From Candidatus Moraniibacteriota bacterium (GTDB lineage: Bacteria > Patescibacteriota > Minisyncoccia > Moranbacterales > UBA2206), in contig JBAQNP010000011.1 of assembly GCA_049303905.1 (NCBI GenBank), positions 2,020 to 66,019 of the forward strand: a stretch of DNA of 64,000 nucleotides. Direction: 5' to 3'. Made by a program: the position numbers and the translations under genes. The notes below the pieces were generated by a model. The model was not told the DNA's origin and did not search any database. It saw nothing but the letters and a program-made list of their open reading frames with translations. Positions 18,912-34,091 of this stretch are shown piece after piece; position 1 is the stretch's first letter, and each line of letters opens with the position of its first letter.

Positions 18912-18972
18912 TATTGTTGATTTTTAAATTATTACATTTAACATTAATTATACTAGCATAAAACCAAAAAAT

Positions 18973-19006
18973 ACAAAACAGCCCCGCCTAAACGGGACTG
19001 TCCTAT
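18973..19006 (-). terminator. Rho-independent terminator downstream of the RRM gene
   Basis: Minus strand: ACAGTCCCG-TTTAGG-CGGGGCTGT followed by a T-rich run. Confidence 0.5.
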
Positions 19007-19041
19007 TATTCGCATGTGCCTTTCGCTAAGGCTTTCACATA

Positions 19042-19368
19042 CTAGAATCGGTCTCTTCGTCCGCCGAAATCTCGGCCACGACCATTTCCGCCTCCAAAGC
19101 CACCTGTGCGAGGTCGGTCTTCTTTTGGTCGGGCTTCATTAACAGTCAATGCTCGTCCTTCGACTTCTTTTCCATTGAACATGTCAATTGCAGCTGTCGC
19201 TTCCGCGTCAGAACTCATTTCAACGAATCCAAAACCCTTGGATCGTCCAGACATTCTGTCGGTGATGATCATTGCAGAAGCTACTGTTCCCGCTGCGGAA
19301 AACATTTCTTTTAATGATTCATCGTTTACGCTGTAGGGCAAATTGCCTACATATAGTTTTTGTGCCAT
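19042..19368 (-). CDS. RRM-type RNA-binding protein with Gly/Arg-rich tail
   Basis: RNP-2 LYVGNL and RNP-1 KGFGFVEM; C-terminal RGG/GR repeats. Confidence 0.85.
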   Translation of the reverse strand: MAQKLYVGNLPYSVNDESLKEMFSAAGTVASAMIITDRMSGRSKGFGFVEMSSDAEATAAIDMFNGKEVEGRALTVNEARPKEDRPRTGGFGGGNGRGRDFGGRRDRF

Positions 19369-19550
19369 TTTCTTACTTGCCCCGCTATTCTGTTTACAGA
19401 ATTTTGCGGGGTTGCCTTATTTAATTTAATATTGCAAGGCGACCTCTCTCATATCGCTTGTTCCTTACTTTTTTTAGATAAGGCAAAACTTACTGAGAAG
19501 ACTTACAACTAAAAAGATTGTAGCTTAAAAAATAAATTACGTCAATCTCA

Positions 19551-20378
19551 TTAGGGAGCAATTTTTTCTACGCTTTGCCCCATCGGAATTTCATTCGTTT
19601 CAATTTGTTCTGTTTGAGGTTGACTTACTTTATCATCCTCATTTTCCTCCGGCACTACTGGCGCAACTTCTGGCGGTAATTCCCCTTTTTGCAGACTGGC
19701 ATATCCAAAGAAAGCGTTGAAACGATTAGACCAAATCAAGACATTATAATACTTATCCAAATCAACTAACTTCTCAACTTTATAGTTAACATTTCCTGTG
19801 GTTGATTTCATCACACCTAAATCAATAGCATCATCTGGATTAAGATTCGAAACTGGCGAAAGATAGATGTGCATATCTTGCCCATTGACCATTTCAAAAC
19901 CTTCCAATCGCAAAAAAAATTCTCCTTCGCTTTTTACAAAAAGTGCTTTGCCTTTCAAAATTTGTTCTACATTATTGAATCTTCCTTGAGAAACAATTTC
20001 TCCATTAGCTGGGAAAGCTTCGTCTAGATTCTCAATTTCTATAACCTTTCCTGGTTCTTGCAAATTGGAAGAAATTGAATTTTTTGGCAGTGGGCGCGGA
20101 GCATTTTTCTTCTTTTTCACCAGAAAAATCACTCCCGCAATGATGGCTAAAATCAGAACTATAATCAAAACTAGAAACACTATTTTCTTCCAAGTTTTTT
20201 TCTGATAGGTTTTTCGCATTACCACTTTTGGTTTTCTGAATTTTTTGAAAGGATTAGTGACCCTAATCGTTTTTATTTTCTCCATTATATCCCCTATCGC
20301 CTTTTTTATCACTTCTTTTTTGATAATAGTTTTTTTAGTTTTATTGATTTTTCTAACTTTTATAATTTGCTTTTTCAT
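19551..20378 (-). CDS. membrane-anchored DM13-like domain protein
   Basis: Basic N-terminus, one TM helix; C-terminal GKALFVKSEGEFFLRLEGFEMVNGQDMHIYLSP resembles the DM13 domain. Confidence 0.45.
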   Translation of the reverse strand: MKKQIIKVRKINKTKKTIIKKEVIKKAIGDIMEKIKTIRVTNPFKKFRKPKVVMRKTYQKKTWKKIVFLVLIIVLILAIIAGVIFLVKKKKNAPRPLPKNSISSNLQEPGKVIEIENLDEAFPANGEIVSQGRFNNVEQILKGKALFVKSEGEFFLRLEGFEMVNGQDMHIYLSPVSNLNPDDAIDLGVMKSTTGNVNYKVEKLVDLDKYYNVLIWSNRFNAFFGYASLQKGELPPEVAPVVPEENEDDKVSQPQTEQIETNEIPMGQSVEKIAP

Positions 20379-20665: not shown

Positions 20666-20690
20666 TTGACAATTAAATATTCCGCGATAG
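20666..20690 (+). repeat. 25-bp direct repeat copy 1 (TTGACAATTAAATATTCCGCGATAG), contains the first 10 nt of tRNA-Asn
   Basis: 24/25 identical to 21019-21043. Followed by nested perfect hairpins (TCCCGAC/GTCGGGA; TTCTGTC/GACAGAA) and then GCTCAAT, which looks like a pseudo-tRNA 5' fragment. Confidence 0.6.
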
Positions 20691-21033: not shown

Positions 21034-21105
21034 TCCGCGATAGCTCAATGGTAGAGCAGTTGACTGTTAATCAATTGGTTCCAGGTTCGAGTCCTGGTCG
21101 CGGAG
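21034..21105 (+). tRNA. tRNA-Asn (anticodon GTT)
   Basis: Acceptor TCCGCGA/TCGCGGA, D arm GCTCAATGGTAGAGC, anticodon loop CTGTTAA, T arm CCAGGTTCGAGTCCTGG, discriminator G. Confidence 0.85.
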
Positions 21106-22698
21106 CAGAACTGGAGAACTAGAGTATAAAAGCTCTAGTTTTTCTTTATCTTCGGGCAAATTCAGAGGTTCGAACTTTCTGAATATCGTATTTAGCTCGG
21201 AAGATATTTTTTCTAGGCCAGCGAACTTATTATCGGCTCTAATATTGAGTTTTTTCTCAGAAAGTGAGAGGTTCGAACCAATCGCCCTAAATATCTCTTT
21301 TCGTTTTTCTTCATCGCCATTTCTGAACTTTTCAAGTGAGTCCTTGGCAAGCTCCAGCAATTCTTTCGTTTCTTCCAGCTGGTCTATCCAATAGGTTGAA
21401 TTGTCCTCACAAGCGTCCAAACTGGCCTTCAGCCGTCCTTTTTCTCGTGTTAGCTCATCTTTCTTCGTTGCGAATTCACCCTCGCTTAATTCGCCATTTA
21501 TTCGCATATCTAGGAGTCTAGCTAACTTGTTATCATAAGCTTCGCATTCCTTTTTTCGGTTTTCTAATGTTTGTTTCCTTTCCTCAATTTCTTCCTTGTT
21601 TTCCTTTCTGAGTTTTTCAATCGCCCATTCTAGGAATGTGGGGTGGATCTTTATTCTTTTTAGGATTCCAATGATTTCTTCTTCAAACTTCCTTTCCTCG
21701 ACTACTTTTTGATCGCATTTTGGATCTAACCTGTGACTACAGTGGTAGTAGATGTAATAATGAGTTTTGCCATTCTTGCATTTCTTAACTTTATGTTCAG
21801 CTACTATCGATGCTTCACATATTCCGCATCTGATCGCTCCTGTATATTTGAAACTGTATTTTCGTGGTCTGGTCGTTCCTCGTCGACCGAGTATCATTTG
21901 AGTCTTTTCGAATTCTGCTTGTGTGATCATCGGTTCATGCTTGCCTTTATGCCATTGGCCACTATCGGATGGAAATTCATACCAGCCGTAGTAGAAAGGG
22001 TTATTCATCATGGCGTACCATGAGCTGATGGAAACTTTTTGGCCATGCTTATTTGTAAAGTTCCATTCAGCAGTTCCTTTCCTGTATGCTTCTGGCGGAG
22101 TGAGTTTTCCTGAAGCGACCATTTTCAACATCTTTTGAATCGTTTCAAATCTTTCAGGATCTTTGATGATTTCTTTTTCGCCTTTGAGCTTGATGGGATT
22201 GTGTCTATATCCGAGTGGCGATCCATTAGGATACCACCCTCGCTCCGCTTTGTTTCGCAGGCCTCGCTTTGTGTCAGTGCTTAGATCGCGAATGAATTGG
22301 TTAGCCATTCCTTGCTCTACAGCCATCACTAGAACATTATCTTCAGGGTAATAACTTCTCCCGAATGTAAAAATATGTTTTATCATCTTACCCTGTAGCA
22401 TCCAACTTATCGTACCGCTATCTACAGGATTTCTAGACAGACGATTAAGTTTCCAACAAAGTATTCCATCAGCTTCGCCCCGTTTTATTTTTTCGAACAT
22501 TTCGTTAAAAACTATCCTCCCAGGCTCTTTGGCTGATTTGGATTCATGCATAATTTCAGATACATTCAACCCGTTTTCTTTTGCGAGTCTTTGTAACTCT
22601 TCAATTTGCGAGTCAATCGATGCCATTTGTCGATCCTCGCTTTCAGATGATTTTCGAGCGTAAAGAATGTACTTAGTTGCTCTTGTTTCTTGGTTCAT
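21067..22698 (-). CDS. large serine recombinase (resolvase/invertase-type catalytic domain + recombinase domain + zinc ribbon + coiled coil)
   Basis: N-terminal YARKSSESEDRQMASIDSQ (catalytic Ser region), zinc ribbon CGICEAS...YYHCSHR, long coiled coil. The annotated 3' end reads through the tRNA-Asn 3' half (last ~13 codons), so the true stop may be earlier or it overlaps att. Confidence 0.85.
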   Translation of the reverse strand: MNQETRATKYILYARKSSESEDRQMASIDSQIEELQRLAKENGLNVSEIMHESKSAKEPGRIVFNEMFEKIKRGEADGILCWKLNRLSRNPVDSGTISWMLQGKMIKHIFTFGRSYYPEDNVLVMAVEQGMANQFIRDLSTDTKRGLRNKAERGWYPNGSPLGYRHNPIKLKGEKEIIKDPERFETIQKMLKMVASGKLTPPEAYRKGTAEWNFTNKHGQKVSISSWYAMMNNPFYYGWYEFPSDSGQWHKGKHEPMITQAEFEKTQMILGRRGTTRPRKYSFKYTGAIRCGICEASIVAEHKVKKCKNGKTHYYIYYHCSHRLDPKCDQKVVEERKFEEEIIGILKRIKIHPTFLEWAIEKLRKENKEEIEERKQTLENRKKECEAYDNKLARLLDMRINGELSEGEFATKKDELTREKGRLKASLDACEDNSTYWIDQLEETKELLELAKDSLEKFRNGDEEKRKEIFRAIGSNLSLSEKKLNIRADNKFAGLEKISSELNTIFRKFEPLNLPEDKEKLELLYSSSPVLLRDQDSNLEPID

Positions 22699-23029: not shown

Positions 23030-23246
23030 AAAACGTTCAGAAAATTCAGAAAATGTGTCCGCAAAACCCGCAAAACTACATTCTCAAAACGTTCGGAAAA
23101 CTCGGAAAACTAAAGTACGAAAAACGCTCCAAAAACTCCAAAAACCTACCTTTAAAAACGTTCAGAAAATTCAGGGGATTAAATTCCTGAAACGTTCAGA
23201 AAACTCAGAAAACCATATCCTTTTCTGTGTCAGAAAAGTCAGGGAA
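23030..23246. repeat. six degenerate iteron-like repeats AAAACGTTCAGAAAAYTCAGAAAA (each itself a TTCAGAAAA dimer)
   Basis: Copies begin near 23030, 23087, 23116, 23154, 23190 and 23225. The spurious 97-aa plus-strand ORF at 23055..23348 is just a translation of these repeats. Confidence 0.6.
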
Positions 23247-24546: not shown

Positions 24547-25653
24547 TTATAGGTTCATTAGCTTTTTGAATCTGGTTATTTCTCTTGATGCAATATTTGC
24601 AGGGACTTTCTTAAGCTTAAGGTTTTCCATTACTTTGTTTGCCTCTTTGTTGGTCAATTTTTCCCCAGTAATCAAGAAGAAATATATTGCCTCGCTCAAT
24701 ATTGTTTTTGGATCTATCCTTGAAATTCCCATTTTAGACTTGTAGGATGGAAATTTCTTTATGACACCAGCACCGCTTAATTCTTTGATAAGGTTTCTTA
24801 TATCGGTTATGTCAGTTGCACCATAAATATCAATGCTGATGTGTGGCTCAAAATTCTTCAGTTTTTCCTTGCTTAACTGAATGCATCGATTTTCCGTTTG
24901 TATTATTGAAGCCCTTGATGATCTTCGGCTGGAAGTCGCAAAATTATCATCCCACTCTATTTTATTGAACAAAATAAATTTTCTTAGATTGGATGAATAA
25001 CTCGAAGGGAAACCCAATTCCATGACAAAAAAATTGTAAATTTCCTCTTTGAGTTTCGGGTATTTATTATCTAAAAATATATCAATTTCATCAATCAATT
25101 TTTGCTTGGTTTTGCCACTTTGATTTTCCGTGCTTTTGTCAGCTATTTCCAAAATCAGATCATAATATGGATCGGATTCATTTTCCAATACTTCTACCAA
25201 ATAAACTGCATTTTCTCTAAAATTACTATATACTTCCGCTCTGACAGCACTAGGTTTTATTCCATATTTTTTTCTCAGGTTGCTTAACCATTGATTGAAT
25301 TTTGGAATAAATCGCAATATGGTAATCAGCGATATTTCTTTTGGATGTTTTAAACCTTTTTTAATATAACCAAAATCTGTAGCCAAAATTGATAAAACTT
25401 CTCGCTTAGCTAAGGATTCTTTTTCAGATAATCCCATTTCAATCCCTGTTTTTTTGGATGGTTTATTTTTCTCCTTAATTAGATTATTTAAACCGAGCAA
25501 ATCATTTGGAATAAAATATTCTTCTTTGATAAAACCAGCATCTTCTAGAAATTTGCTTGATACCTGGATAGTTCTCTTCGAGAAAAGAGGACTTTTATTT
25601 GCTTCTGTACAAAAATCAACTAAATTCATGATGTTAATCTTAATTTCTTCCAT
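24547..25653 (-). CDS. hypothetical protein (start placed at MEEIKIN; track ORF extends to 25845)
   Basis: The first 64 codons of the track ORF (MSGRPDGYHNQKTPRCSIMCVEPPAKGRDRAKPKG...) run through a GC-rich hairpin cluster that is atypical for this genome's coding sequence. Confidence 0.45.
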   Translation of the reverse strand: MEEIKINIMNLVDFCTEANKSPLFSKRTIQVSSKFLEDAGFIKEEYFIPNDLLGLNNLIKEKNKPSKKTGIEMGLSEKESLAKREVLSILATDFGYIKKGLKHPKEISLITILRFIPKFNQWLSNLRKKYGIKPSAVRAEVYSNFRENAVYLVEVLENESDPYYDLILEIADKSTENQSGKTKQKLIDEIDIFLDNKYPKLKEEIYNFFVMELGFPSSYSSNLRKFILFNKIEWDDNFATSSRRSSRASIIQTENRCIQLSKEKLKNFEPHISIDIYGATDITDIRNLIKELSGAGVIKKFPSYKSKMGISRIDPKTILSEAIYFFLITGEKLTNKEANKVMENLKLKKVPANIASREITRFKKLMNL

Positions 25654-25740
25654 TTTACCACTAAACCCGAAATGGTTGTATTTTAAGCAATTTGATGGTA
25701 TTTTATATTTGGTACCATAATCAATAAATACTAAGGTGAA

Positions 25741-25880
25741 ACCCTTGGGTTTTGCTCTATCACGCCCTTTAGCGGGCGGCTCGACGCACATGATAGAGCA
25801 CCTTGGTGTTTTTTGATTGTGGTACCCGTCGGGTCGTCCACTCAAGCGGAACCACTCGACGACTAATTATTAGTCGTTTT
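25741..25880. other. GC-rich structured element (nested hairpins) ending in a terminator-like CGACTAA-TTA-TTAGTCG-TTTTT
   Basis: Stems GCTCTATCA/TGATAGAGC (25754-25799) enclosing CGCCC/GGGCG; GTCGTC/GACGAC (25833-25863); final hairpin 25860-25881. Could be an sRNA or ribo-regulator on the plus strand, or a 5' leader of the minus-strand gene. Confidence 0.3.
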
Positions 25881-25884
25881 TATT

Positions 25885-27168
25885 ATGAAAATTTCTAGAA
25901 TTTTAGGGGAAAACTTTTTTCGGAAAGATTTGAATCTTAAAAATAAATGGTTGCATAGACTTATTTCTATCTCATTTGTTTTATTATTTTTTGTTTCTGT
26001 TATTTCCGTATTTGTAGACTATTTTGATGGTAATGGTTTTACCCAATGGACACAGACAAACACTCTTAAAGAGAGAATAAATTCTGATATGAATGCTACT
26101 GGCAATCTTGTTAAACAAAACGAGAAATTAGAAGAAATTGGTGCTCCTGCACAAACTCTAAATCTTAATGACTTGCCCTATGGTGATTATGTTTTAAATA
26201 ATGTATATTGTTCCACTGAAATTCAAAATCATGTAGGGGAAATAAAAAACGAACGTAAAATTGACCACCTTCTAGTAAGAGATTTGTATGATAAAAATGA
26301 TGTTTCAATTGAAGATTTTAATAAATACATAAAGGAAAATAATATAGATTGTATAGCTGTGGATGCTTATACGACTTATGGAAATAACAGTCAGGAAACT
26401 GGTAAATTTACTTTTTTAGAACCCAATAAAAAATTTCAGAATGGTTGGGCGTTTTATAAAAAATCAATCCCCAAAACCGTTTTATATCTTTTAGGATATT
26501 CACTTTGGACAGTGACATCTTTATTACTTATTTTCATTGTAATAGCCGTTATCTATTATAAAATTTTGCTTTATATAATATTCGGCAAAGCCACCAATGA
26601 AGCATCAAGGGAGGGAATCGAAAGAAGCGATGCAGTAAAATTGAGTCGATACGCAAAGCCCATAGTCATTATCTCAATCGTAATCATTTTACTTTTAGGA
26701 GTTTCTTTTTATTGGTTTGGAATTAGGCCGTCAAATATTCGACAGTGGTGTTCTGACGTTGAGGGAAGACAGGCTACTAATAGTGAATACACGAATTGTT
26801 TAAGGAAAAATGGGTTAAGAGAGGACAATTTACAATCTATTAATGATGAGCAATTAAAAAATTTACAACAAAGCATCGACGAGCAGTCGGAAAAAATAGA
26901 AAATGTTAACACAAAAAAGAACACCTCGTCTATCGATGCTCAGGCAATAATAAAGTCATCCATAGAAAAAACTAATCGTGAAGAGCAGGCAAAATGCCAG
27001 CAGGAATTAAGTGAATATAACTCCTGTTTAGCTGAGTATAATTCTAAGATGACTGAATATAATTCATGCCTAACGGAAGAAGCGAATCCGAATTCCTGGA
27101 ATTATGGCAAGACATCACTTTGTTTCAAGCCATCTAATTATTGCTTTAAGCCAGTTTGTGCTTATTAG
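25885..27168 (+). CDS. membrane protein with coiled-coil and Cys-rich C-terminus, hypothetical
   Basis: 427 aa; N-terminal TM helix, two internal TM helices, C-terminal CxxEYNSC repeats. Confidence 0.5.
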   Translation: MKISRILGENFFRKDLNLKNKWLHRLISISFVLLFFVSVISVFVDYFDGNGFTQWTQTNTLKERINSDMNATGNLVKQNEKLEEIGAPAQTLNLNDLPYGDYVLNNVYCSTEIQNHVGEIKNERKIDHLLVRDLYDKNDVSIEDFNKYIKENNIDCIAVDAYTTYGNNSQETGKFTFLEPNKKFQNGWAFYKKSIPKTVLYLLGYSLWTVTSLLLIFIVIAVIYYKILLYIIFGKATNEASREGIERSDAVKLSRYAKPIVIISIVIILLLGVSFYWFGIRPSNIRQWCSDVEGRQATNSEYTNCLRKNGLREDNLQSINDEQLKNLQQSIDEQSEKIENVNTKKNTSSIDAQAIIKSSIEKTNREEQAKCQQELSEYNSCLAEYNSKMTEYNSCLTEEANPNSWNYGKTSLCFKPSNYCFKPVCAY

Positions 27169-27177
27169 TAAAAAAGT

Positions 27178-29430
27178 CTATAGTTTGATTTTTGTTTTTA
27201 CTTTTTGGTCTATGATGTTGTATATGGGATATTTTTCTCTGATAATTTGGTGTAAGTCTATCCTTTTTGTTGTATCTGGCGTTATATCCTCAATAGATAT
27301 TACCAGTGCATAATCTTGAGAATAATCAATTGTATCAGCCTTTCCTCTTGTAGTTAAGGTTAGCCATATTTCCCAATCACCATTTTTATAATGCGAAAAA
27401 GTTTTTTCAAAAGTCTTTAGATTTTGCCATTTTGTTCTATTGTCAATCTTTTCCGAGGGGAGTCCGGCACTTCTATCCGTACCATTAGAGTTTTTATAAT
27501 GAAGATTGATGTCTATATCTGCTAATGTATAATCTATCTGGCCACTTTCACTTATGAGTGGAGTATAGGCTAAAGTTCCCCTAATCTTAACTTTTTTATT
27601 TTTTCCAACCAACTCATCAGGAATAATAAATTTTATTTTATGTTTATACTCTTTTGCTTCTTGATCATTTTCTTTTTTTGCCTCAATGGCTCCCAGGTGT
27701 ATAAATGTCGCTGATGACTTATCGCAGTCTAAAGCTCTGCTGTAATCAGGGATTCCAAAACCAACTGCTCTTCTACAATCATTCTCTTTTATTTTTGAAT
27801 TATTAGGCAGATTGTAACTAGCAGAATGAACAACTAAGGCCTTTACTAAATCAATCGAGTTTCTCCCAGTGTTCAACAGATAAGCATAAATTTGAGCGGC
27901 AATACTACTTACTAATGGAGCCGCAAAACTTGTTCCGATATTTTCATAAATTTTTTTAGGATCAATTGATAAGCTCCTAACTCCAACCCCTGCATAGTTT
28001 CCGTATTTATCGATATTCCCTCCAAAATGTGCTAAATCTGGCTTTTTTGAATCAGGCAGACCGGTTCTTGTAAAAGGAGACGGCTCATTATTCAGAGATA
28101 ATGCTCTTGAAGACGAACTATCAGCAATGGAGCCAACGCTTAAACCATTTATGATGTCGGCAGGAGAGGTAATAACTGAATTGTTGCAGAATAAACAATC
28201 TGGATATGTATCAGTCAGAAAAGTTTTTTGATTGCCTGCCGTTACAATTAAACAAACTTTGTGTTTATATGCTATTGCATCAAGCTCGCGAGTGAAAAAT
28301 GATTTTGTGTTATTTAGTATTGTCGTATCCGAGTCATTATTTAATGATAGATTAAAAACTTTTATATCTTTGTATTTTGGGTTTTTTATTGTGTCCAAGA
28401 GAGCGTTTATTATTTCTCGATCATTAGCACCCCTGCTTTTTCTCATCACTTTTATATCTAGAATTTTCAAGGCTGGTATCAGTCGGTTATTTTCTCTTAT
28501 TTGGTTTTCAATGTCATTTCCAAAAATTGCTCGTCCTGCAACGAATGTGCCATGCGAATGATTTTCGTCTTGAGAATCCTTTATAAAATCACAAGTATCT
28601 AGAATTAAATCCTTAATTAAGGGGTGTCTAGATATGCCAGTATCTATGACACCAATTTTTGCATCAAGTAATGGTTTTTCTATAATAACCGAATTGTATT
28701 CATATTCAATAGGTAGCTCTTGCGGGGTAAAAAAATCAATAGATTTTTCCACTCTAACAATTGGATTTCTTGGATCTGGTTCAGAAATTTCATCAATAAA
28801 ATTTGCGGCGAAAGAACCATATAATATTTTTGAACCAGCTTGCGAAGTAAAATACTCAACTTCAGAGCCAGTTTTCTTTTTCAGATTTTTTGCTACTTGT
28901 TTTCCATCTTCTTCGGAAACACCATCTGCAAGTATCAAATAGCTCTTGATTTTTTTGCCTTTTTGCGGAACAAATGATAACTTCGCACGCTTATTAATAA
29001 GTCCAATCTTGGTAATCGCAGACAAATATGCACTTCCGTTTTTATTATTAATCAAATCGAATTTACTTACAGAGTCCCTAAAGGATTTAAGATTTTCAGC
29101 AGTTGAGGATGCTAGAAAATTTTGTTTTCCTATTTGCGAATAAACATCTATATGGTTTTGTTCTAGTAGCTTACGTGGTTGTGCTGACTTTGCTAGTGCC
29201 TCATCATGAAATTCGATTTCATAAAATAATCTGTTTCCAGATAAAATTTGCCCTACTTTCTTTGTTTCCGCAAAACCTATAAGGTTGTCAACTTCTCGAA
29301 CCCTATCTCTTTTGTGTTTTTCAAATTCCGAATCATCTCCTCTGTAAGGCGGTGGATTTCCGCCTCCAGATTTTTGCTCTCTGCGATTATTTTCGGCTGG
29401 TATTTCAAATAAAGGGTTTTTTATTTTCAT
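27178..29430 (-). CDS. S8 family subtilisin-like serine peptidase with ~220-aa N-terminal extension
   Basis: Catalytic triad contexts VIDTGI (Asp), HGTFVAG (His), GTSFAAP (Ser). Sits 14 nt downstream of the AAA ATPase. Confidence 0.8.
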   Translation of the reverse strand: MKIKNPLFEIPAENNRREQKSGGGNPPPYRGDDSEFEKHKRDRVREVDNLIGFAETKKVGQILSGNRLFYEIEFHDEALAKSAQPRKLLEQNHIDVYSQIGKQNFLASSTAENLKSFRDSVSKFDLINNKNGSAYLSAITKIGLINKRAKLSFVPQKGKKIKSYLILADGVSEEDGKQVAKNLKKKTGSEVEYFTSQAGSKILYGSFAANFIDEISEPDPRNPIVRVEKSIDFFTPQELPIEYEYNSVIIEKPLLDAKIGVIDTGISRHPLIKDLILDTCDFIKDSQDENHSHGTFVAGRAIFGNDIENQIRENNRLIPALKILDIKVMRKSRGANDREIINALLDTIKNPKYKDIKVFNLSLNNDSDTTILNNTKSFFTRELDAIAYKHKVCLIVTAGNQKTFLTDTYPDCLFCNNSVITSPADIINGLSVGSIADSSSSRALSLNNEPSPFTRTGLPDSKKPDLAHFGGNIDKYGNYAGVGVRSLSIDPKKIYENIGTSFAAPLVSSIAAQIYAYLLNTGRNSIDLVKALVVHSASYNLPNNSKIKENDCRRAVGFGIPDYSRALDCDKSSATFIHLGAIEAKKENDQEAKEYKHKIKFIIPDELVGKNKKVKIRGTLAYTPLISESGQIDYTLADIDINLHYKNSNGTDRSAGLPSEKIDNRTKWQNLKTFEKTFSHYKNGDWEIWLTLTTRGKADTIDYSQDYALVISIEDITPDTTKRIDLHQIIREKYPIYNIIDQKVKTKIKL

Positions 29431-29444
29431 AATTTTACTTTTAA

Positions 29445-30557
29445 TTATTTGCTTATATTATGAATTGTTGAAGATGAGATACCTGTCATTTTTTCAAGAT
29501 TATCGAAGGTGTATCTTGATTTATCGGATTTTCTTAAATGTCTTATTGCTTTTATAAAATTTTTTCTAGGAGCACCTTTTAACTTTTCATTTTTTCCAGC
29601 AGTTGCAATTAAGAAATTTTCTATAAGAATATCTCTTAAACCAGCAGAATCTTTATCAAGGAGTGATTTCCTGAGACTCTTGTTAATAATTTGCTTTATT
29701 ATTGCACCTGATAATCCCTCTGAGAGTTCGGCTAGAAGATTGATATCAATATCTTCATTTGCCCCTATAATCATCTGAATTAAAGATTTACGAAGTGAGG
29801 CAGGGAGGATATCTATTTTAAGGGAATAATCAAATCTTCTCCAGACCGCTGAATCAAGTAAATGATCATGATTTGTTGCGGCAATCAATATGGTATCAGG
29901 ATTAAGCTCGTCGATATTTTGAAGTAAAACAGTCACTACTCGCTTAAGCTCACCTAGTTCTTGCGAATCATCTCGATGCTTTGCGATTGCATCAAATTCA
30001 TCCAATAATAAAACGCACTCGTTTGCGGAAGCTTCTCTGAATATTTCTTTTAAGTTTTTTCCTGTTTCTCCAAGATATGAAGATATAAGCGAATCTAAAT
30101 AAACATGAAGAATCGGAATACCTAATTCTCCGGCGACAACATAGGCGAAGAGAGTTTTTCCTGTTCCAGGAGGACCATGCAAAATTAACCTACTATCATT
30201 ACTTAATCCATGCTTTCTTAAGAGATCCTTTTTCTTGTAGTTGTGTATTATTTCTTGAAGGGTTTCCTTATTTGTATCTGAAAGTATTATATTTCCAATG
30301 CCAATTTTTGATTTTCGTATTTCAAAAAGTTTAGAATTATTATCCTGCGTATTTGAAAATTGAAATGAGCTTAGTGATGAGGGAGAGAAATGTGCCTCCG
30401 ATGCTGATGCATAAGCTTCTCGTAGTTTTTTTGCCAAATTATATTGCTTCCTTTTTTCTGCGGTCGCTATGAGCTTCTTGATGATGATATCAATTTCTTG
30501 CGGATCATTTTTTTTGAATGAATTTATTAAATTTATGATAATTTCTGTAGAAATCAT
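29445..30557 (-). CDS. AAA+ ATPase
   Basis: Walker A GPPGTGKT, Walker B VLLLDEFD; 370 aa; first gene of a two-gene operon with the S8 peptidase. Confidence 0.8.
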   Translation of the reverse strand: MISTEIIINLINSFKKNDPQEIDIIIKKLIATAEKRKQYNLAKKLREAYASASEAHFSPSSLSSFQFSNTQDNNSKLFEIRKSKIGIGNIILSDTNKETLQEIIHNYKKKDLLRKHGLSNDSRLILHGPPGTGKTLFAYVVAGELGIPILHVYLDSLISSYLGETGKNLKEIFREASANECVLLLDEFDAIAKHRDDSQELGELKRVVTVLLQNIDELNPDTILIAATNHDHLLDSAVWRRFDYSLKIDILPASLRKSLIQMIIGANEDIDINLLAELSEGLSGAIIKQIINKSLRKSLLDKDSAGLRDILIENFLIATAGKNEKLKGAPRKNFIKAIRHLRKSDKSRYTFDNLEKMTGISSSTIHNISK

Positions 30558-30780
30558 AGCAATTTTTATTTTATTTTAAGATTATGTTTTAATTATATCC
30601 AAAAATAGAAATTAAGTAAAGTTTTGGATAAATGCAATTTAAAACAGTTTAGATACGCCAGTTGTTATGCTGTTATAGTCATCCATAATTATTATTGACT
30701 GGCACTCAGTCGAAAGAATGGTCATTGCTTTTTATGTAAATGTGGAATATAAATGATTATAGACGCAAGCTAAAATTGAG

Positions 30781-32827: not shown

Positions 32828-32907
32828 ATTGGAAGCTGGCATTGAGATATATGTGGTATTTATTATTAAGCATAGGTTCGCATCATTTTTAGCTCGCGGA
32901 GCCTTTA

Positions 32908-33035: not shown

Positions 33036-34091
33036 ATGGAAAAATTAACTAATCGTCAAAACTCAATACTAGAATTCATAAGAAATCAGGGGCAAGCCAG
33101 CACTAGGGAAATTAAGAAATACCAAGAACTAAAAACGGGAACTCTAAATAGAATAACAATCATAAGAGATCTTGATGTTTTAATAACGAAAAAACTAATT
33201 AAAAAAACAGGACAAGGAAGAAGCGTTTCTTATAGCATGATAATTGAAAATCCCCTACTGTCTTTTTATGATATTGAAAAATATTTTAAACAATCAATAA
33301 AAGAAAGAAATTCTCGAAAAAACTTCAACTTCGATATCTTTAAAAATTTTGATAATTCCATATTTTCAAAAGAAGAATTATCTAATCTTGATAAACTGAA
33401 TGATACCTACCGAAAAAGCGTAGCAAGGCTTTCCCCAACTATTTTAAAAAAGGAGTTTGAAAGACTAACTATCGAATTAAGTTGGAAATCATCTCAAATA
33501 GAAGGAAACACATATTCGTTAATAGAAACGGAAATTTTAATAACAGAAAATCAAGAGGCTTCCGGTCACACAAAATCAGAAACTCAAATGATCTTAAATC
33601 ATAAAAAAGCTCTGGATTATATTATTAATAATCCTAAAATTTTCAAAGAATTAACTCTTTCCAAAATCGAAGACTTGCACAAGCTACTCATCTTCGATCT
33701 TGGAGTTGAAAAAAATATTAGAAAAACATCAGTCGGAATAACTGGAACTAATTACAAACCGCTAGACAACCAATTTCAAATAAAAGAAGCCTTGCATGAA
33801 ATGCTTTCGATTATTAATGCTAAAAATCTACATCCCCTGCTAAAAGCACTCTCTGCAATCGCCTTAATTTCCTATACCCAGCCCTTTGAAGATGGAAACA
33901 AAAGAACTGCTAGAATTTTAGGCAATGCTATTTTATTAGCCCAGGAATATTGCCCACTATCCTACAGAGATGTTGATAAAAATGACTACAAGAAAGCGAT
34001 TTTGCTTTTTTATGAACAAAATAGTCTTTATTTACTAAAAGAAATTTTCATCCAACAATTTGAATTTGCAGTGAAGAATTATTTTGAATAA
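33036..34091 (+). CDS. Fic family protein with N-terminal HTH-like region
   Basis: Fic motif QPFEDGNKRTARILGNAILL. Confidence 0.75.
   Translation: MEKLTNRQNSILEFIRNQGQASTREIKKYQELKTGTLNRITIIRDLDVLITKKLIKKTGQGRSVSYSMIIENPLLSFYDIEKYFKQSIKERNSRKNFNFDIFKNFDNSIFSKEELSNLDKLNDTYRKSVARLSPTILKKEFERLTIELSWKSSQIEGNTYSLIETEILITENQEASGHTKSETQMILNHKKALDYIINNPKIFKELTLSKIEDLHKLLIFDLGVEKNIRKTSVGITGTNYKPLDNQFQIKEALHEMLSIINAKNLHPLLKALSAIALISYTQPFEDGNKRTARILGNAILLAQEYCPLSYRDVDKNDYKKAILLFYEQNSLYLLKEIFIQQFEFAVKNYFE

Follow-up and report, generated by a model that had tools for sequence, protein, structure and literature searches.

In the IetAS systems that have been studied, both catalytic and ATPase activity are needed for defence. 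The pair was reportedly presented as an anti-phage system by Gao et al. in 2020. IetAS was first described as a toxin-antitoxin (TA) system for plasmid stability, and a homologue on SGI1 aids the maintenance of that integrative island (PMC13069673, PMC5006074); protection against phage, by abortive infection, is known only for the homologues of B. cereus and E. coli, where it was measured (10.1101/2022.08.27.505566, 10.1101/2022.08.21.504612). In the three homologues studied in this respect the protease alone was toxic and the ATPase neutralised it; attempts to obtain an ietA mutant construct failed, and deletion of the ATPase alone was lethal (PMC13069673, PMC8562856, PMC5006074). In one of them, the TA132/133 pair of Mycoplasma mycoides / JCVI-syn2.0, the ATPase was essential solely while the protease was present (PMC8562856). 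As of April 2026, the molecular mechanism of IetAS was stated to be unknown (PMC13069673). CPR bacteria (Patescibacteria) have been regarded as devoid of most classical defence and TA systems (PMC12455944), and our literature search returned no paper linking IetAS or Gao_Iet with them, although this does not prove that none exists.

The window, that is, the whole stretch of 64,000 nucleotides that we analysed, comes from Candidatus Moraniibacteriota, a CPR host, an origin confirmed by database proteins identical to those of the pair, which carry that name. An initial annotation had described two co-directional genes 14 nt apart, an ATPase followed by an S8 protease, and had likened them to IetAS; both ORFs and the spacer were found as described, on the minus strand (Table 1). 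Defence-profile HMM searches bore out the identity, as both proteins were matched along their full length. IetA aligned with PADLOC profile PDLC02196 (E 4.1e-101, residues 4-370 on positions 4-369 of 374) and with PHROG 3757 (E 7.9e-95), and IetS with PDLC02197 (E 2.6e-96, residues 4-745 on positions 5-746 of 749, flanking domains covered) and PHROG 3964 (E 1.2e-87). The Pfam matches to AAA and Peptidase_S8 were far beyond chance, and the catalytic machinery (Ser-His-Asp triad and Walker A/B) is intact and invariant among the homologues. Taken together, the profile searches confirmed, at the sequence level, that the pair is a complete but divergent member of IetAS, and thus of a known system rather than a new kind of system; such a pair would be picked up whenever PADLOC or DefenseFinder is run.

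The pair agrees with IetAS as modelled elsewhere (PADLOC IetA/IetS, NCBIfam IteA/IteS, DefenseFinder Gao_Iet) in its ATPase-then-S8 order, protein sizes of ~370 and ~750 aa, full-length profile matches and catalytic residues, but it differs from the prototypes in its identity to the PGAP-named pair (26% for IetS, 34% for IetA), its scores below the cut-offs and its membership of a clade almost restricted to CPR. IteA (NF042959) and IteS (NF042956) were the best NCBIfam matches for the two proteins, scoring 310.5 bits (cut-off 510) and 250.4 bits (cut-off 900), respectively, so that neither protein qualifies as an equivalog of the prototypes. Because of the 26-34% identity and of scores this far below the equivalog cut-offs, transferring function to the window is an extrapolation. 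The identical NCBI proteins are named just 'ATP-binding protein' and 'S8 family peptidase'; NCBI annotation misses the CPR clade since its proteins score below the equivalog cut-offs.

Table 1. Positions in the window of the ietA-ietS pair, of its domains and of the surrounding island features
Feature	Position	Strand	Description
tRNA-Asn(GTT)	21034..21106	+	Integration-side island boundary; ARAGORN; Rfam tRNA 74 bits
Large serine recombinase	21067..22698	-	Pfam Resolvase + Recombinase + Zn_ribbon_recom
Four 23-nt iteron-like direct repeats	23031..23212		Between recombinase and small ORFs; repeat family D1, 87-100% identity
Conserved structured RNA, ~185 nt	25694..25876	-	Covariance-model match 204 bits; island backbone, outside IetAS itself
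ietS	27178..29430	-	750 aa, ATG start; predicted cytoplasmic S8 protease, putative toxin/effector
IetS C-terminal beta-rich domain, residues 560-750, ~190 aa	27181..27753	-	Beta strands 573-715 in model; within PADLOC IetS profile
IetS S8 catalytic domain, residues 257-559	27754..28662	-	Pfam Peptidase_S8 PF00082 E 7.7e-30
IetS N-terminal module, residues 1-255	28666..29430	-	Two beta-alpha-beta-beta-alpha units; subtilase-prodomain (I9-type) fold in predicted structure
ietA-ietS spacer	29431..29444	-	14 nt
ietA	29445..30557	-	370 aa, ATG start; classical-clade AAA+ ATPase, putative antitoxin/regulator
AAA core domain of IetA, residues 124-248	29814..30188	-	Pfam PF00004 E 3.8e-32
Best sigma-70-like promoter match	30592..30620	-	TTTACT-17-TATAAT, 10/12; ~35 nt upstream of ietA
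Degenerate direct repeat of tRNA-Asn 3' end (AGGTTCG...TCGCGGAGC)	32874..32902	+	Candidate far boundary, attR-like

Both motifs quoted for the ATPase were present, GPPGTGKT as Walker A (residues 128-135) and LLLDEFD as Walker B (D186-E187). Among 47 homologues, G128, K134, T135, D186, E187, N229, R240 and R241 were invariant, and Y161, L162 and G163 were invariant or nearly so; as the last three lie between the two Walker motifs, we infer that they form a candidate pore loop. In PDB sequence searches the IetA profile (A2) matched the D2 domains of p97, Cdc48 and VAT (E ~1e-80); the hits for the two proteins were limited to p97-type ATPases and generic subtilisins, with neither IetA nor IetS among the solved structures. 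By eye, the final 71 residues of IetA resemble a helix-turn-helix, but their sole PDB match was a 'possible Trp repressor' (E 0.73), so that we assign no such domain.

The protease likewise carried its three motifs as quoted, DTG (D263), HGTFVAG (H293) and GTSFAAP (S501), and this triad, together with the oxyanion residue N400, was invariant in 44 IetS homologues. A complete subtilisin domain had been placed in the C-terminal two-thirds of the protein; the domain is complete, but it occupies the middle ~40%, with an N-terminal region of ~255 aa rather than ~220 aa before it and a beta-rich domain behind. The AF2 model of IetS (pLDDT 86.5, pTM 0.84) matched subtilases in Foldseek down to E 3e-25, and in this predicted structure an alpha/beta fold resembling a subtilase prodomain precedes the S8 core. 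The N-terminal region had been put forward as a possible sensor domain of unknown function, a view that the model replaces with a prodomain-like module confined to IetS proteins. Scanned on their own against Pfam, the N- and C-terminal regions gave noise only. The best whole-chain structural matches (Tk-SP 3afg, KP-43 1wmd, SubHal 5fax, PCSK9 and Kex2/furin) also have a C-terminal beta domain, and the order of a prodomain-like unit, an S8 core and a C-terminal beta domain is shared with pro-subtilases and proprotein convertases (Tk-SP, pro-Tk-subtilisin, KP-43, PCSK9, furin/Kex2). Those enzymes, however, are secreted and mature by cleavage of the prodomain, whereas IetS has two units in its ~255-aa N-terminal region and an ATPase partner and, having neither a signal peptide nor a TM segment, is firmly predicted to be cytoplasmic, unlike secreted nutritional proteases.

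No terminator-like site was found on the minus strand between ietA and ietS, and since the 14-nt spacer holds none the two genes are likely to form an operon. The candidate promoter listed in Table 1 is a consensus match alone, and such sites were not above shuffled expectation in the region. Across homologous loci the two genes were at most 17 nt apart and overlapped by up to 11 nt. As proposed initially, the two genes are conserved neighbours: the ATPase lay directly upstream in 19/19 strong IetS loci, and the ATPase-then-protease adjacency was strict across phyla. The search for IetS recovered 53 homologues among 5.8 billion clusters, the identical NCBI cluster included. The clade of the window comprised ~46 full-length clusters, nearly all from metagenome contigs, and was almost confined to CPR. 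A conserved third gene comparable to ietH was considered and rejected, as the flanking genes differ among the window and the related loci L001, L072, L002, L004 and L006; ietHAS (Liu-DS4) has IetA and IetS in common with the window, but its third gene, an SNF2 helicase (PMC13069673), is absent there.

The surroundings support the assignment of ietA and ietS to the cargo of an ~11.8-kb integrative island that sits at tRNA-Asn and encodes a large serine recombinase. The tRNA, the recombinase and the iterons named in the initial annotation are all real (Table 1), and the tRNA, the recombinase and the related island loci L001 and L072 agree with its placement of the pair as cargo of a tRNA-Asn element. 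The recombinase lies at one island end with all three domain types present (PF00239, E 4.3e-20; PF07508; PF13408), and its final 13 codons run antisense into tRNA-Asn. Homologues of it were found 3-7 kb from IetAS in L001, L002, L006 and L072; tRNA-Asn adjoins the homologue in L001 too, and the homologues in L002 and L006 overlap tRNA-Trp and tRNA-Gln, respectively, at their 3' ends. We considered whether the tRNA-Asn of L001 was split by an element nested in the att site and rejected this, as the interruption is a group I intron of a type already published (PMC13011429).

At the far end the candidate island boundary is a degenerate 29-nt repeat rather than a clean att site. The gapped pattern of the tRNA-Asn 3' end occurred in the 64 kb only there and in the tRNA itself, with 0.00 occurrences expected (100 shuffles), and the repeat was 92% conserved over 38 nt at the equivalent position in L072. 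A second exact or near-exact copy of the tRNA-Asn 3' end was not found in searches with a 36-mer (3 mismatches) or a 14-mer (2 mismatches), and a generic repeat search of the window yielded no usable att repeat. A Fic gene (33036-34091), ~130 nt beyond the far repeat, was considered as an island gene. Within the island, ORFs of 112, 93, 72, 432, 427, 430 and 193 aa had no match in Pfam, NCBIfam, PADLOC or PHROGs. The cargo differs among related islands, comprising a membrane protein and ORFs without assignment in the window, and a DpnII restriction-modification (R-M) system and a primase in L001; IetAS was kept in the three closest relatives (the window, L072 and L001) while other cargo changed, and the island backbone of structured RNA and recombinase occurred without IetAS in L077, L080, L082 and L085. 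In the CPR clade, IetAS occurred together with a homologous serine recombinase in 5/6 distinct contexts as compared with 0/29 elsewhere, and defence genes lay near related IetAS loci (the DpnII R-M system in L001; GmrSD and a DGR in L005). In CPR, a distinct IetAS clade is spread on tRNA-targeting serine-recombinase islands, despite the supposed paucity of defence systems in these bacteria.

Among the described systems, IetA/IetS of pTiC58 and S026/S025 (SgiAT) of SGI1 are, by description, the same kind of pair on a mobile element, and SGI1 is also an integrative island (PMC5006074, PMC13069673); the window differs in that its host is a CPR bacterium and its island relies on a large serine recombinase next to tRNA-Asn. 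TA132/133 (a 353-aa AAA-ATPase and a 757-aa subtilisin-like protease), again compared by description, resembles the pair in sizes, gene order and very small host genome, but its host belongs to another phylum. By analogy with these three pairs and with ietAS of B. cereus and E. coli, IetS would be a toxic intracellular protease that active IetA keeps harmless. The order of the genes, with the putative antitoxin upstream, matches that of type II-like toxin-antitoxin pairs. If IetA were disabled or diverted, IetS would cleave cellular proteins and growth would stop or the cell would die; IetA might be put out of action by a protein of an infecting phage, or the island might be lost and with it the resupply of IetA. 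Infection would then be abortive and, on the same reasoning, the cell would be addicted to the island. We know of no phage of the window's host. As for the point of control, our own inference from the structural model is that it may lie in the prodomain-like N-terminal module of IetS, and IetA, which resembles a ring unfoldase and whose candidate pore loop shows a conserved aromatic-hydrophobic-Gly pattern, may keep IetS as a zymogen inhibited by its prodomain or restore it to that state. On the sequence, the model and these analogies, we consider it probable that the window carries a divergent IetAS on a tRNA-Asn island in which IetA holds the toxic protease IetS harmless, serving both abortive infection and island addiction.

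The pair might instead be mainly a post-segregational killing module that stabilises the island and has little or no anti-phage role, island loss ending the supply of IetA so that leftover IetS kills. The first description of IetAS as a plasmid-stability TA system and the contribution of the SGI1 homologue to island maintenance (PMC13069673, PMC5006074) speak for this, as do the link with the serine recombinase in CPR and the retention of IetAS amid changing cargo in the three closest relatives. Four loci, however, have the backbone without IetAS, and the pair is therefore not a core maintenance gene; the defence genes beside related loci and the phage protection measured for homologues (10.1101/2022.08.27.505566, 10.1101/2022.08.21.504612) also weigh against it. 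We regard an addiction module with hardly any defensive role as a serious but not a probable reading, and the addiction and anti-phage roles are compatible with each other. The fold of the N-terminal module would also suit a reverse arrangement, in which a phage cue leads IetA to unfold or remove the inhibitory module and so switch on the IetS zymogen, given that subtilase prodomains inhibit until removed and that IetA belongs to an unfoldase clade and keeps the pore-loop motif. An obligate activator would predict the reverse of the toxic protease and neutralising ATPase seen in three studied homologues, and the unobtainable ietA mutant construct and the lethal ATPase-alone deletion also speak against it (PMC13069673, PMC8562856, PMC5006074), so that we think this arrangement improbable. 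The initial annotation had spoken of the ATPase 'licensing' the protease; in the literature the ATPase is instead an antitoxin that restrains it (PMC13069673, PMC8562856, PMC5006074).

A housekeeping origin, either as an AAA+ quality-control protease analogous to FtsH, Lon or the PAN-proteasome or as a secreted nutritional subtilase with a chaperone, could be suggested by the resemblance of the AAA core to FtsH, PAN and Cdc48 and by S8 proteases being commonly secreted. IetA scored 104 bits with FtsH, 103 with PAN and 21 with ClpX, at most one-third of its IteA score and far under their cut-offs (600, 500 and 371 bits, respectively), which sets it apart from the housekeeping AAA families as had been anticipated. 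The partner protease, moreover, is of the S8 type, not M41, S16, S14 or T1. Together with the lack of a signal peptide in IetS, the mobile-island location, the patchy distribution and the full-length defence-profile matches of both proteins, this makes such an origin very unlikely. Returning to IetS as a toxin restrained by IetA, the prodomain-like N-terminus and the unfoldase-type partner provide a concrete idea of how IetAS might be controlled. Generalised from the structural model, the N-terminal module would be an intramolecular prodomain through which all members of the IetAS family are controlled, IetA would hold or reset the zymogen, phage triggers would divert IetA, and a dedicated CPR clade would ride tRNA-targeting serine-recombinase islands; we put this forward tentatively, as more doubtful than not. 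If true, prodomain control would supply the molecular mechanism of a defence/TA family said to have no known one as of 2026, and the CPR clade would be one of few abortive-infection modules in these reduced genomes.

The structured RNA of the island backbone is well supported in its own right. Its model has 45 pairs, 14 of them with compensatory changes; pairing reached 98.3% as compared with 91.0% in shuffles (0/500), and covariation was 0.271 as compared with 0.131, falling to ≤0.078 when the structure was slid. It matched no Rfam family and may merit separate study.

Both genes that the initial annotation had described as an ATPase–subtilase operon were present and intact at the positions it gave, 14 nt apart, with every ATPase and S8 motif it had quoted; to this we add that both lie on the minus strand, where no terminator-like site was found between ietA and ietS. 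The ATPase contained an AAA domain (PF00004, residues 124–248, E 3.8e-32, Pfam) and the protease a Peptidase_S8 domain (PF00082, residues 257–559, E 7.7e-30, Pfam). The S8 domain is thus real, but it spans the middle ~40 % of IetS and not the C-terminal two-thirds, with ~255 aa preceding it, instead of the ~220 aa proposed, and ~190 aa following it. Because IetS has no hydrophobic N-terminus and no TM segment in its sequence, it is predicted to be cytoplasmic.

Features of the IetAS island and copies of its structured RNA in related contigs
Feature	Position	Strand	Details
ietA ORF, 370 aa	29445..30557	minus	intact ORF
ietS ORF, 750 aa	27178..29430	minus	intact ORF
Large serine recombinase	21067..22698	antisense to tRNA-Asn	Resolvase + Recombinase + Zn ribbon (Pfam)
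tRNA-Asn	21034-21106	opposite to recombinase	recombinase gene ends inside it
Structured RNA, ~185 nt, GC-rich	25694-25876	minus	RNAalifold + covariance model
Structured RNA copies	L001 13688-13875; L072 8319-8501; L075-L085

The name IetAS, proposed in the initial annotation, was borne out by full-length PADLOC matches to IetA (PDLC02196, E 4.1e-101, residues 4–370 on profile positions 4–369 of 374) and IetS (PDLC02197, E 2.6e-96, residues 4–745 on 5–746 of 749). The top NCBIfam matches, 'anti-phage ATPase IteA' (310.5 bits; equivalog cut-off 510 bits) and 'S8 family anti-phage peptidase IteS' (250.4 bits; cut-off 900 bits), were both well under the curated cut-offs, and the runner-up families for IetA (FtsH, PAN and Cdc48) scored ~100 bits each. 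In PHROGs, the ATPase matched phrog_3757 (E 7.9e-95) and the protease phrog_3964 (E 1.2e-87), both listed as 'unknown function', and relatives were also present in phage and plasmid records (tblastn). The best annotated relative was a collinear pair on a Dongshaea marina plasmid (26 % identity over IetS residues 71–747 and 34 % over IetA residues 28–369), whose protease was named iteS by PGAP. Taken together, the full-length profile matches, the scores below cut-off and this collinear relative indicate that, by profile and architecture, the pair belongs to the IetAS family in a divergent subfamily; every sequence-level hallmark of IetAS was found, namely both profile matches, the adjacency and order of the genes and the catalytic residues. 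IetAS is already known as a system, while its genomic context and one proposed structural feature are new.

The initial annotation had made its reading depend on the two genes being conserved as neighbours, which proved to be the case. IetS homologues at 94, 76, 60, 47 and 36 % identity had an IetA homologue directly upstream on the same strand, the two genes being up to 17 nt apart or overlapping by as much as 11 nt. A survey of one genome per species yielded 63 loci with an S8 relative, whose ORFs were scored with HMMs from our own IetA and IetS alignments. An IetA-like ORF lay directly upstream in 19/19 loci with an S8 ORF of at least 200 bits (Uhrbacteria, Planctomycetales, Verrucomicrobiae, Christensenellaceae, Shewanella, Bacteroidota, Acidobacteriota, Bdellovibrionota and Paenibacillus among them), was present in 7/11 loci at 100–200 bits, and occurred in only 3 of the loci below 100 bits, the S8 gene being split into two ORFs in each of the three. 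A search of 5.8 billion clusters gave only 53 IetS homologues (46 full-length at ≥34 % identity); the few that are named belong to the CPR lineages Moranbacteria, Uhrbacteria and Saccharimonadales, and among species-representative genomes the Uhrbacteria locus alone exceeded 31 % identity. No conserved third gene was found beside IetAS among the related loci, and the ietHAS variant was therefore rejected. Two otherwise identical Uhrbacteria contigs (L004 and L005) differed just downstream of IetAS (11.3–18.2 kb), where GmrSD and a diversity-generating retroelement (RVT_1 and bAvd) were present in one and missing from the other; this site is a variable defence hotspot.

The recombinase gene runs antisense through a tRNA at its 3′ end in three independent islands, at tRNA-Asn in the window (21067–21106), tRNA-Trp in contig L002 (2201–2278) and tRNA-Gln in contig L006 (1816–1914), so that the recombinase C-terminus is partly encoded by tRNA sequence. 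These overlaps point to a CPR family of serine recombinases that target tRNAs. The order and orientation of the backbone were common to the island and its closest relatives, L072 (IetS 94 %, IetA 92 %, recombinase ~80 % nucleotide identity) and L001 (IetS 76 %, IetA 82 %, recombinase 47 %), the L001 recombinase likewise adjoining tRNA-Asn. The cargo comprised a three-TM protein and unknown ORFs in the window, and a DpnII restriction-modification system with a primase-like module in L001. A recombinase homologue was located 3–7 kb from IetAS in five of six distinct CPR contexts, versus none of 29 non-CPR IetAS loci. The proposal that IetAS is mobile-element cargo agrees with this conserved backbone, the varying cargo and the occurrence of the recombinase and the structured RNA without IetAS.

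No exact second copy of the tRNA-Asn 3′ end was found in the window. A 38-nt stretch shared with L072 (32866–32903) holds AGGTTCG...TCGCGGAGC, both ends of the tRNA-Asn T-arm/acceptor segment on the tRNA's strand; in the 64 kb this gapped pattern occurred only in the tRNA and at 32874–32902 (0.00 expected), and it was also found at the equivalent L072 position. We read 32874–32902 as a degenerate att-type repeat, which would make the island ~11.8 kb long, running from about 21.07 kb to about 32.90 kb. Between the recombinase and small ORFs (23031–23212) lie four 23-nt direct repeats (AAACGTTCAGAAAATTCAGAAAA, 87–100 % identical, 34–69-nt spacing), which may serve as iterons or as binding sites for regulation or recombination directionality. 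The gene immediately downstream of ietS runs the other way (25885–27168, plus); its 427-aa product has three TM-like segments and a C-terminal tail rich in Cys, is 54 % identical over 158 aa to the same-position ORF in L072 and matched no family in any library searched.

The structured RNA of the backbone was more conserved between islands than most island genes, and 11 additional copies were found in metagenomes. RNAalifold predicted 45 pairs, 14 with compensatory changes. Among 12 distinct sequences, 98.3 % of cells were paired versus 91.0 % in shuffles (0/500 reaching the observed value), and the covariation score was 0.271 versus 0.131, or ≤0.078 with partners slid. No Rfam family matched it, and the motif, seen on serine-recombinase islands of CPR bacteria, appears not to have been described before. 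The covariance model found one copy per island. The RNA immediately precedes a variable ORF of the same orientation; since the extra loci have recombinases and lack IetAS, the RNA is a backbone feature and IetAS is cargo. The model also gave a weak full-length match (32 bits, rough E 1.7e-5) in the Saccharimonadales island L006 (3468–3639, plus), between the recombinase and the next ORF but oriented opposite to the recombinase; this match could reflect remote homology or chance. The first RNA helix has a competitor for the GTCGTC segment in a small hairpin upstream (ACGAC...GTCGT). A 432-aa ORF (24547–25845, minus) overlaps the RNA with its first ~50 codons; the TTG start of this ORF at 25845 is probably spurious, the real protein likely starting further downstream, e.g. 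at the MEEIKINIMN methionine. In L083, an RNA-bearing contig, an ORF 26 % identical to it follows the RNA.

Among 44 IetS homologues, the triad D263/H293/S501 and the oxyanion N400 were invariant, as were several residues in the N- and C-terminal regions, and the N-terminal module is modelled as having a prodomain-like fold, the new structural point. Among 47 IetA homologues, Walker A G128, K134 and T135, Walker B D186 and E187, N229 and R240/R241 were invariant, and Y161-L162-G163, between Walker A and Walker B, was invariant or nearly so. In classical AAA+ unfoldases pore loop 1 is located between these motifs, and from its position we infer that Y161-L162-G163 is pore loop 1, an assignment backed by IetA profile matches to p97/Cdc48/VAT D2 domains (E ~1e-80). 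The conserved IetA tail (residues 300–370; 29448–29660, minus; consensus KKYT..L..ITGIP.STLH) resembles a helix-turn-helix, its lone PDB match being 'possible Trp repressor' (E 0.73); such a fold, if real, would suit antitoxin autoregulation.

IetAS was first described as a plasmid-stabilising toxin–antitoxin in which the ATPase is the antitoxin to a protease toxin; in Escherichia coli, defence needs protease activity, a mutated-ietA construct was unobtainable, and how the pair acts against phages 'remains unknown' (PMC13069673). S026/S025, the homologues on SGI1, work as a TA pair and aid upkeep of that integrative island (PMC5006074), a 353-aa ATPase and 757-aa S8 protease behave alike in Mycoplasma mycoides/JCVI-syn2.0, where deleting the ATPase alone is lethal (PMC8562856), and Bacillus cereus ietAS causes abortive infection triggered by the SPbeta gene yosG (10.1101/2022.08.27.505566). 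By analogy with these homologues, the protease IetS would be toxic in the cytoplasm unless restrained by active IetA, which may work as a ring unfoldase on the prodomain-like module of IetS; if a phage product or the loss of the island removed or diverted IetA, IetS would be released and the cell would stop. The opposite arrangement, with IetA as the activator of IetS, suits the folds but is at odds with genetic results from three homologues, and we favour restraint by IetA. In a phylum thought poor in such systems (PMC12455944), the new context is a CPR-specific IetAS clade riding tRNA-targeting serine-recombinase islands.

A gene for a 351-aa Fic protein (33036–34091, plus; PADLOC SoFic E 1e-16, PDC-S04 E 3e-16, Pfam Fic E 3e-13) lies ~130 nt beyond the att-like repeat, with rsgA 16 nt further on; the N-terminal region of the protein is winged-helix-like. 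A 45 %-identical Fic adjoins IetA in L001 and a Fic gene lies near IetAS in L006; the Fic gene of the window may be another defence/TA gene or mark an older island accreted there. Upstream of tRNA-Asn (20666–20690, plus) is a 25-nt copy, 96 % identical, of the promoter-like TTGACA box of the tRNA and its first 10 nt, followed (to 21022, plus) by a hairpin-rich insert and a 118-aa GIY-YIG-like ORF with a weak PHROG 'homing endonuclease' match (E 1e-4) and a 38 %-identical relative beyond the att-like repeat in L072. This flank resembles the remains of past homing-endonuclease activity at tRNA-Asn. In L001, the recombinase-adjoining tRNA-Asn (18964–19671, minus), missed by ARAGORN, contains a group I intron of ~630 nt (RF00028, 59.6 bits) that encodes a 108-aa HNH-like protein and interrupts the anticodon loop; the intron agrees with the published position-35/36 tRNA-Asn introns of Patescibacteria (PMC13011429) and is thus already known.
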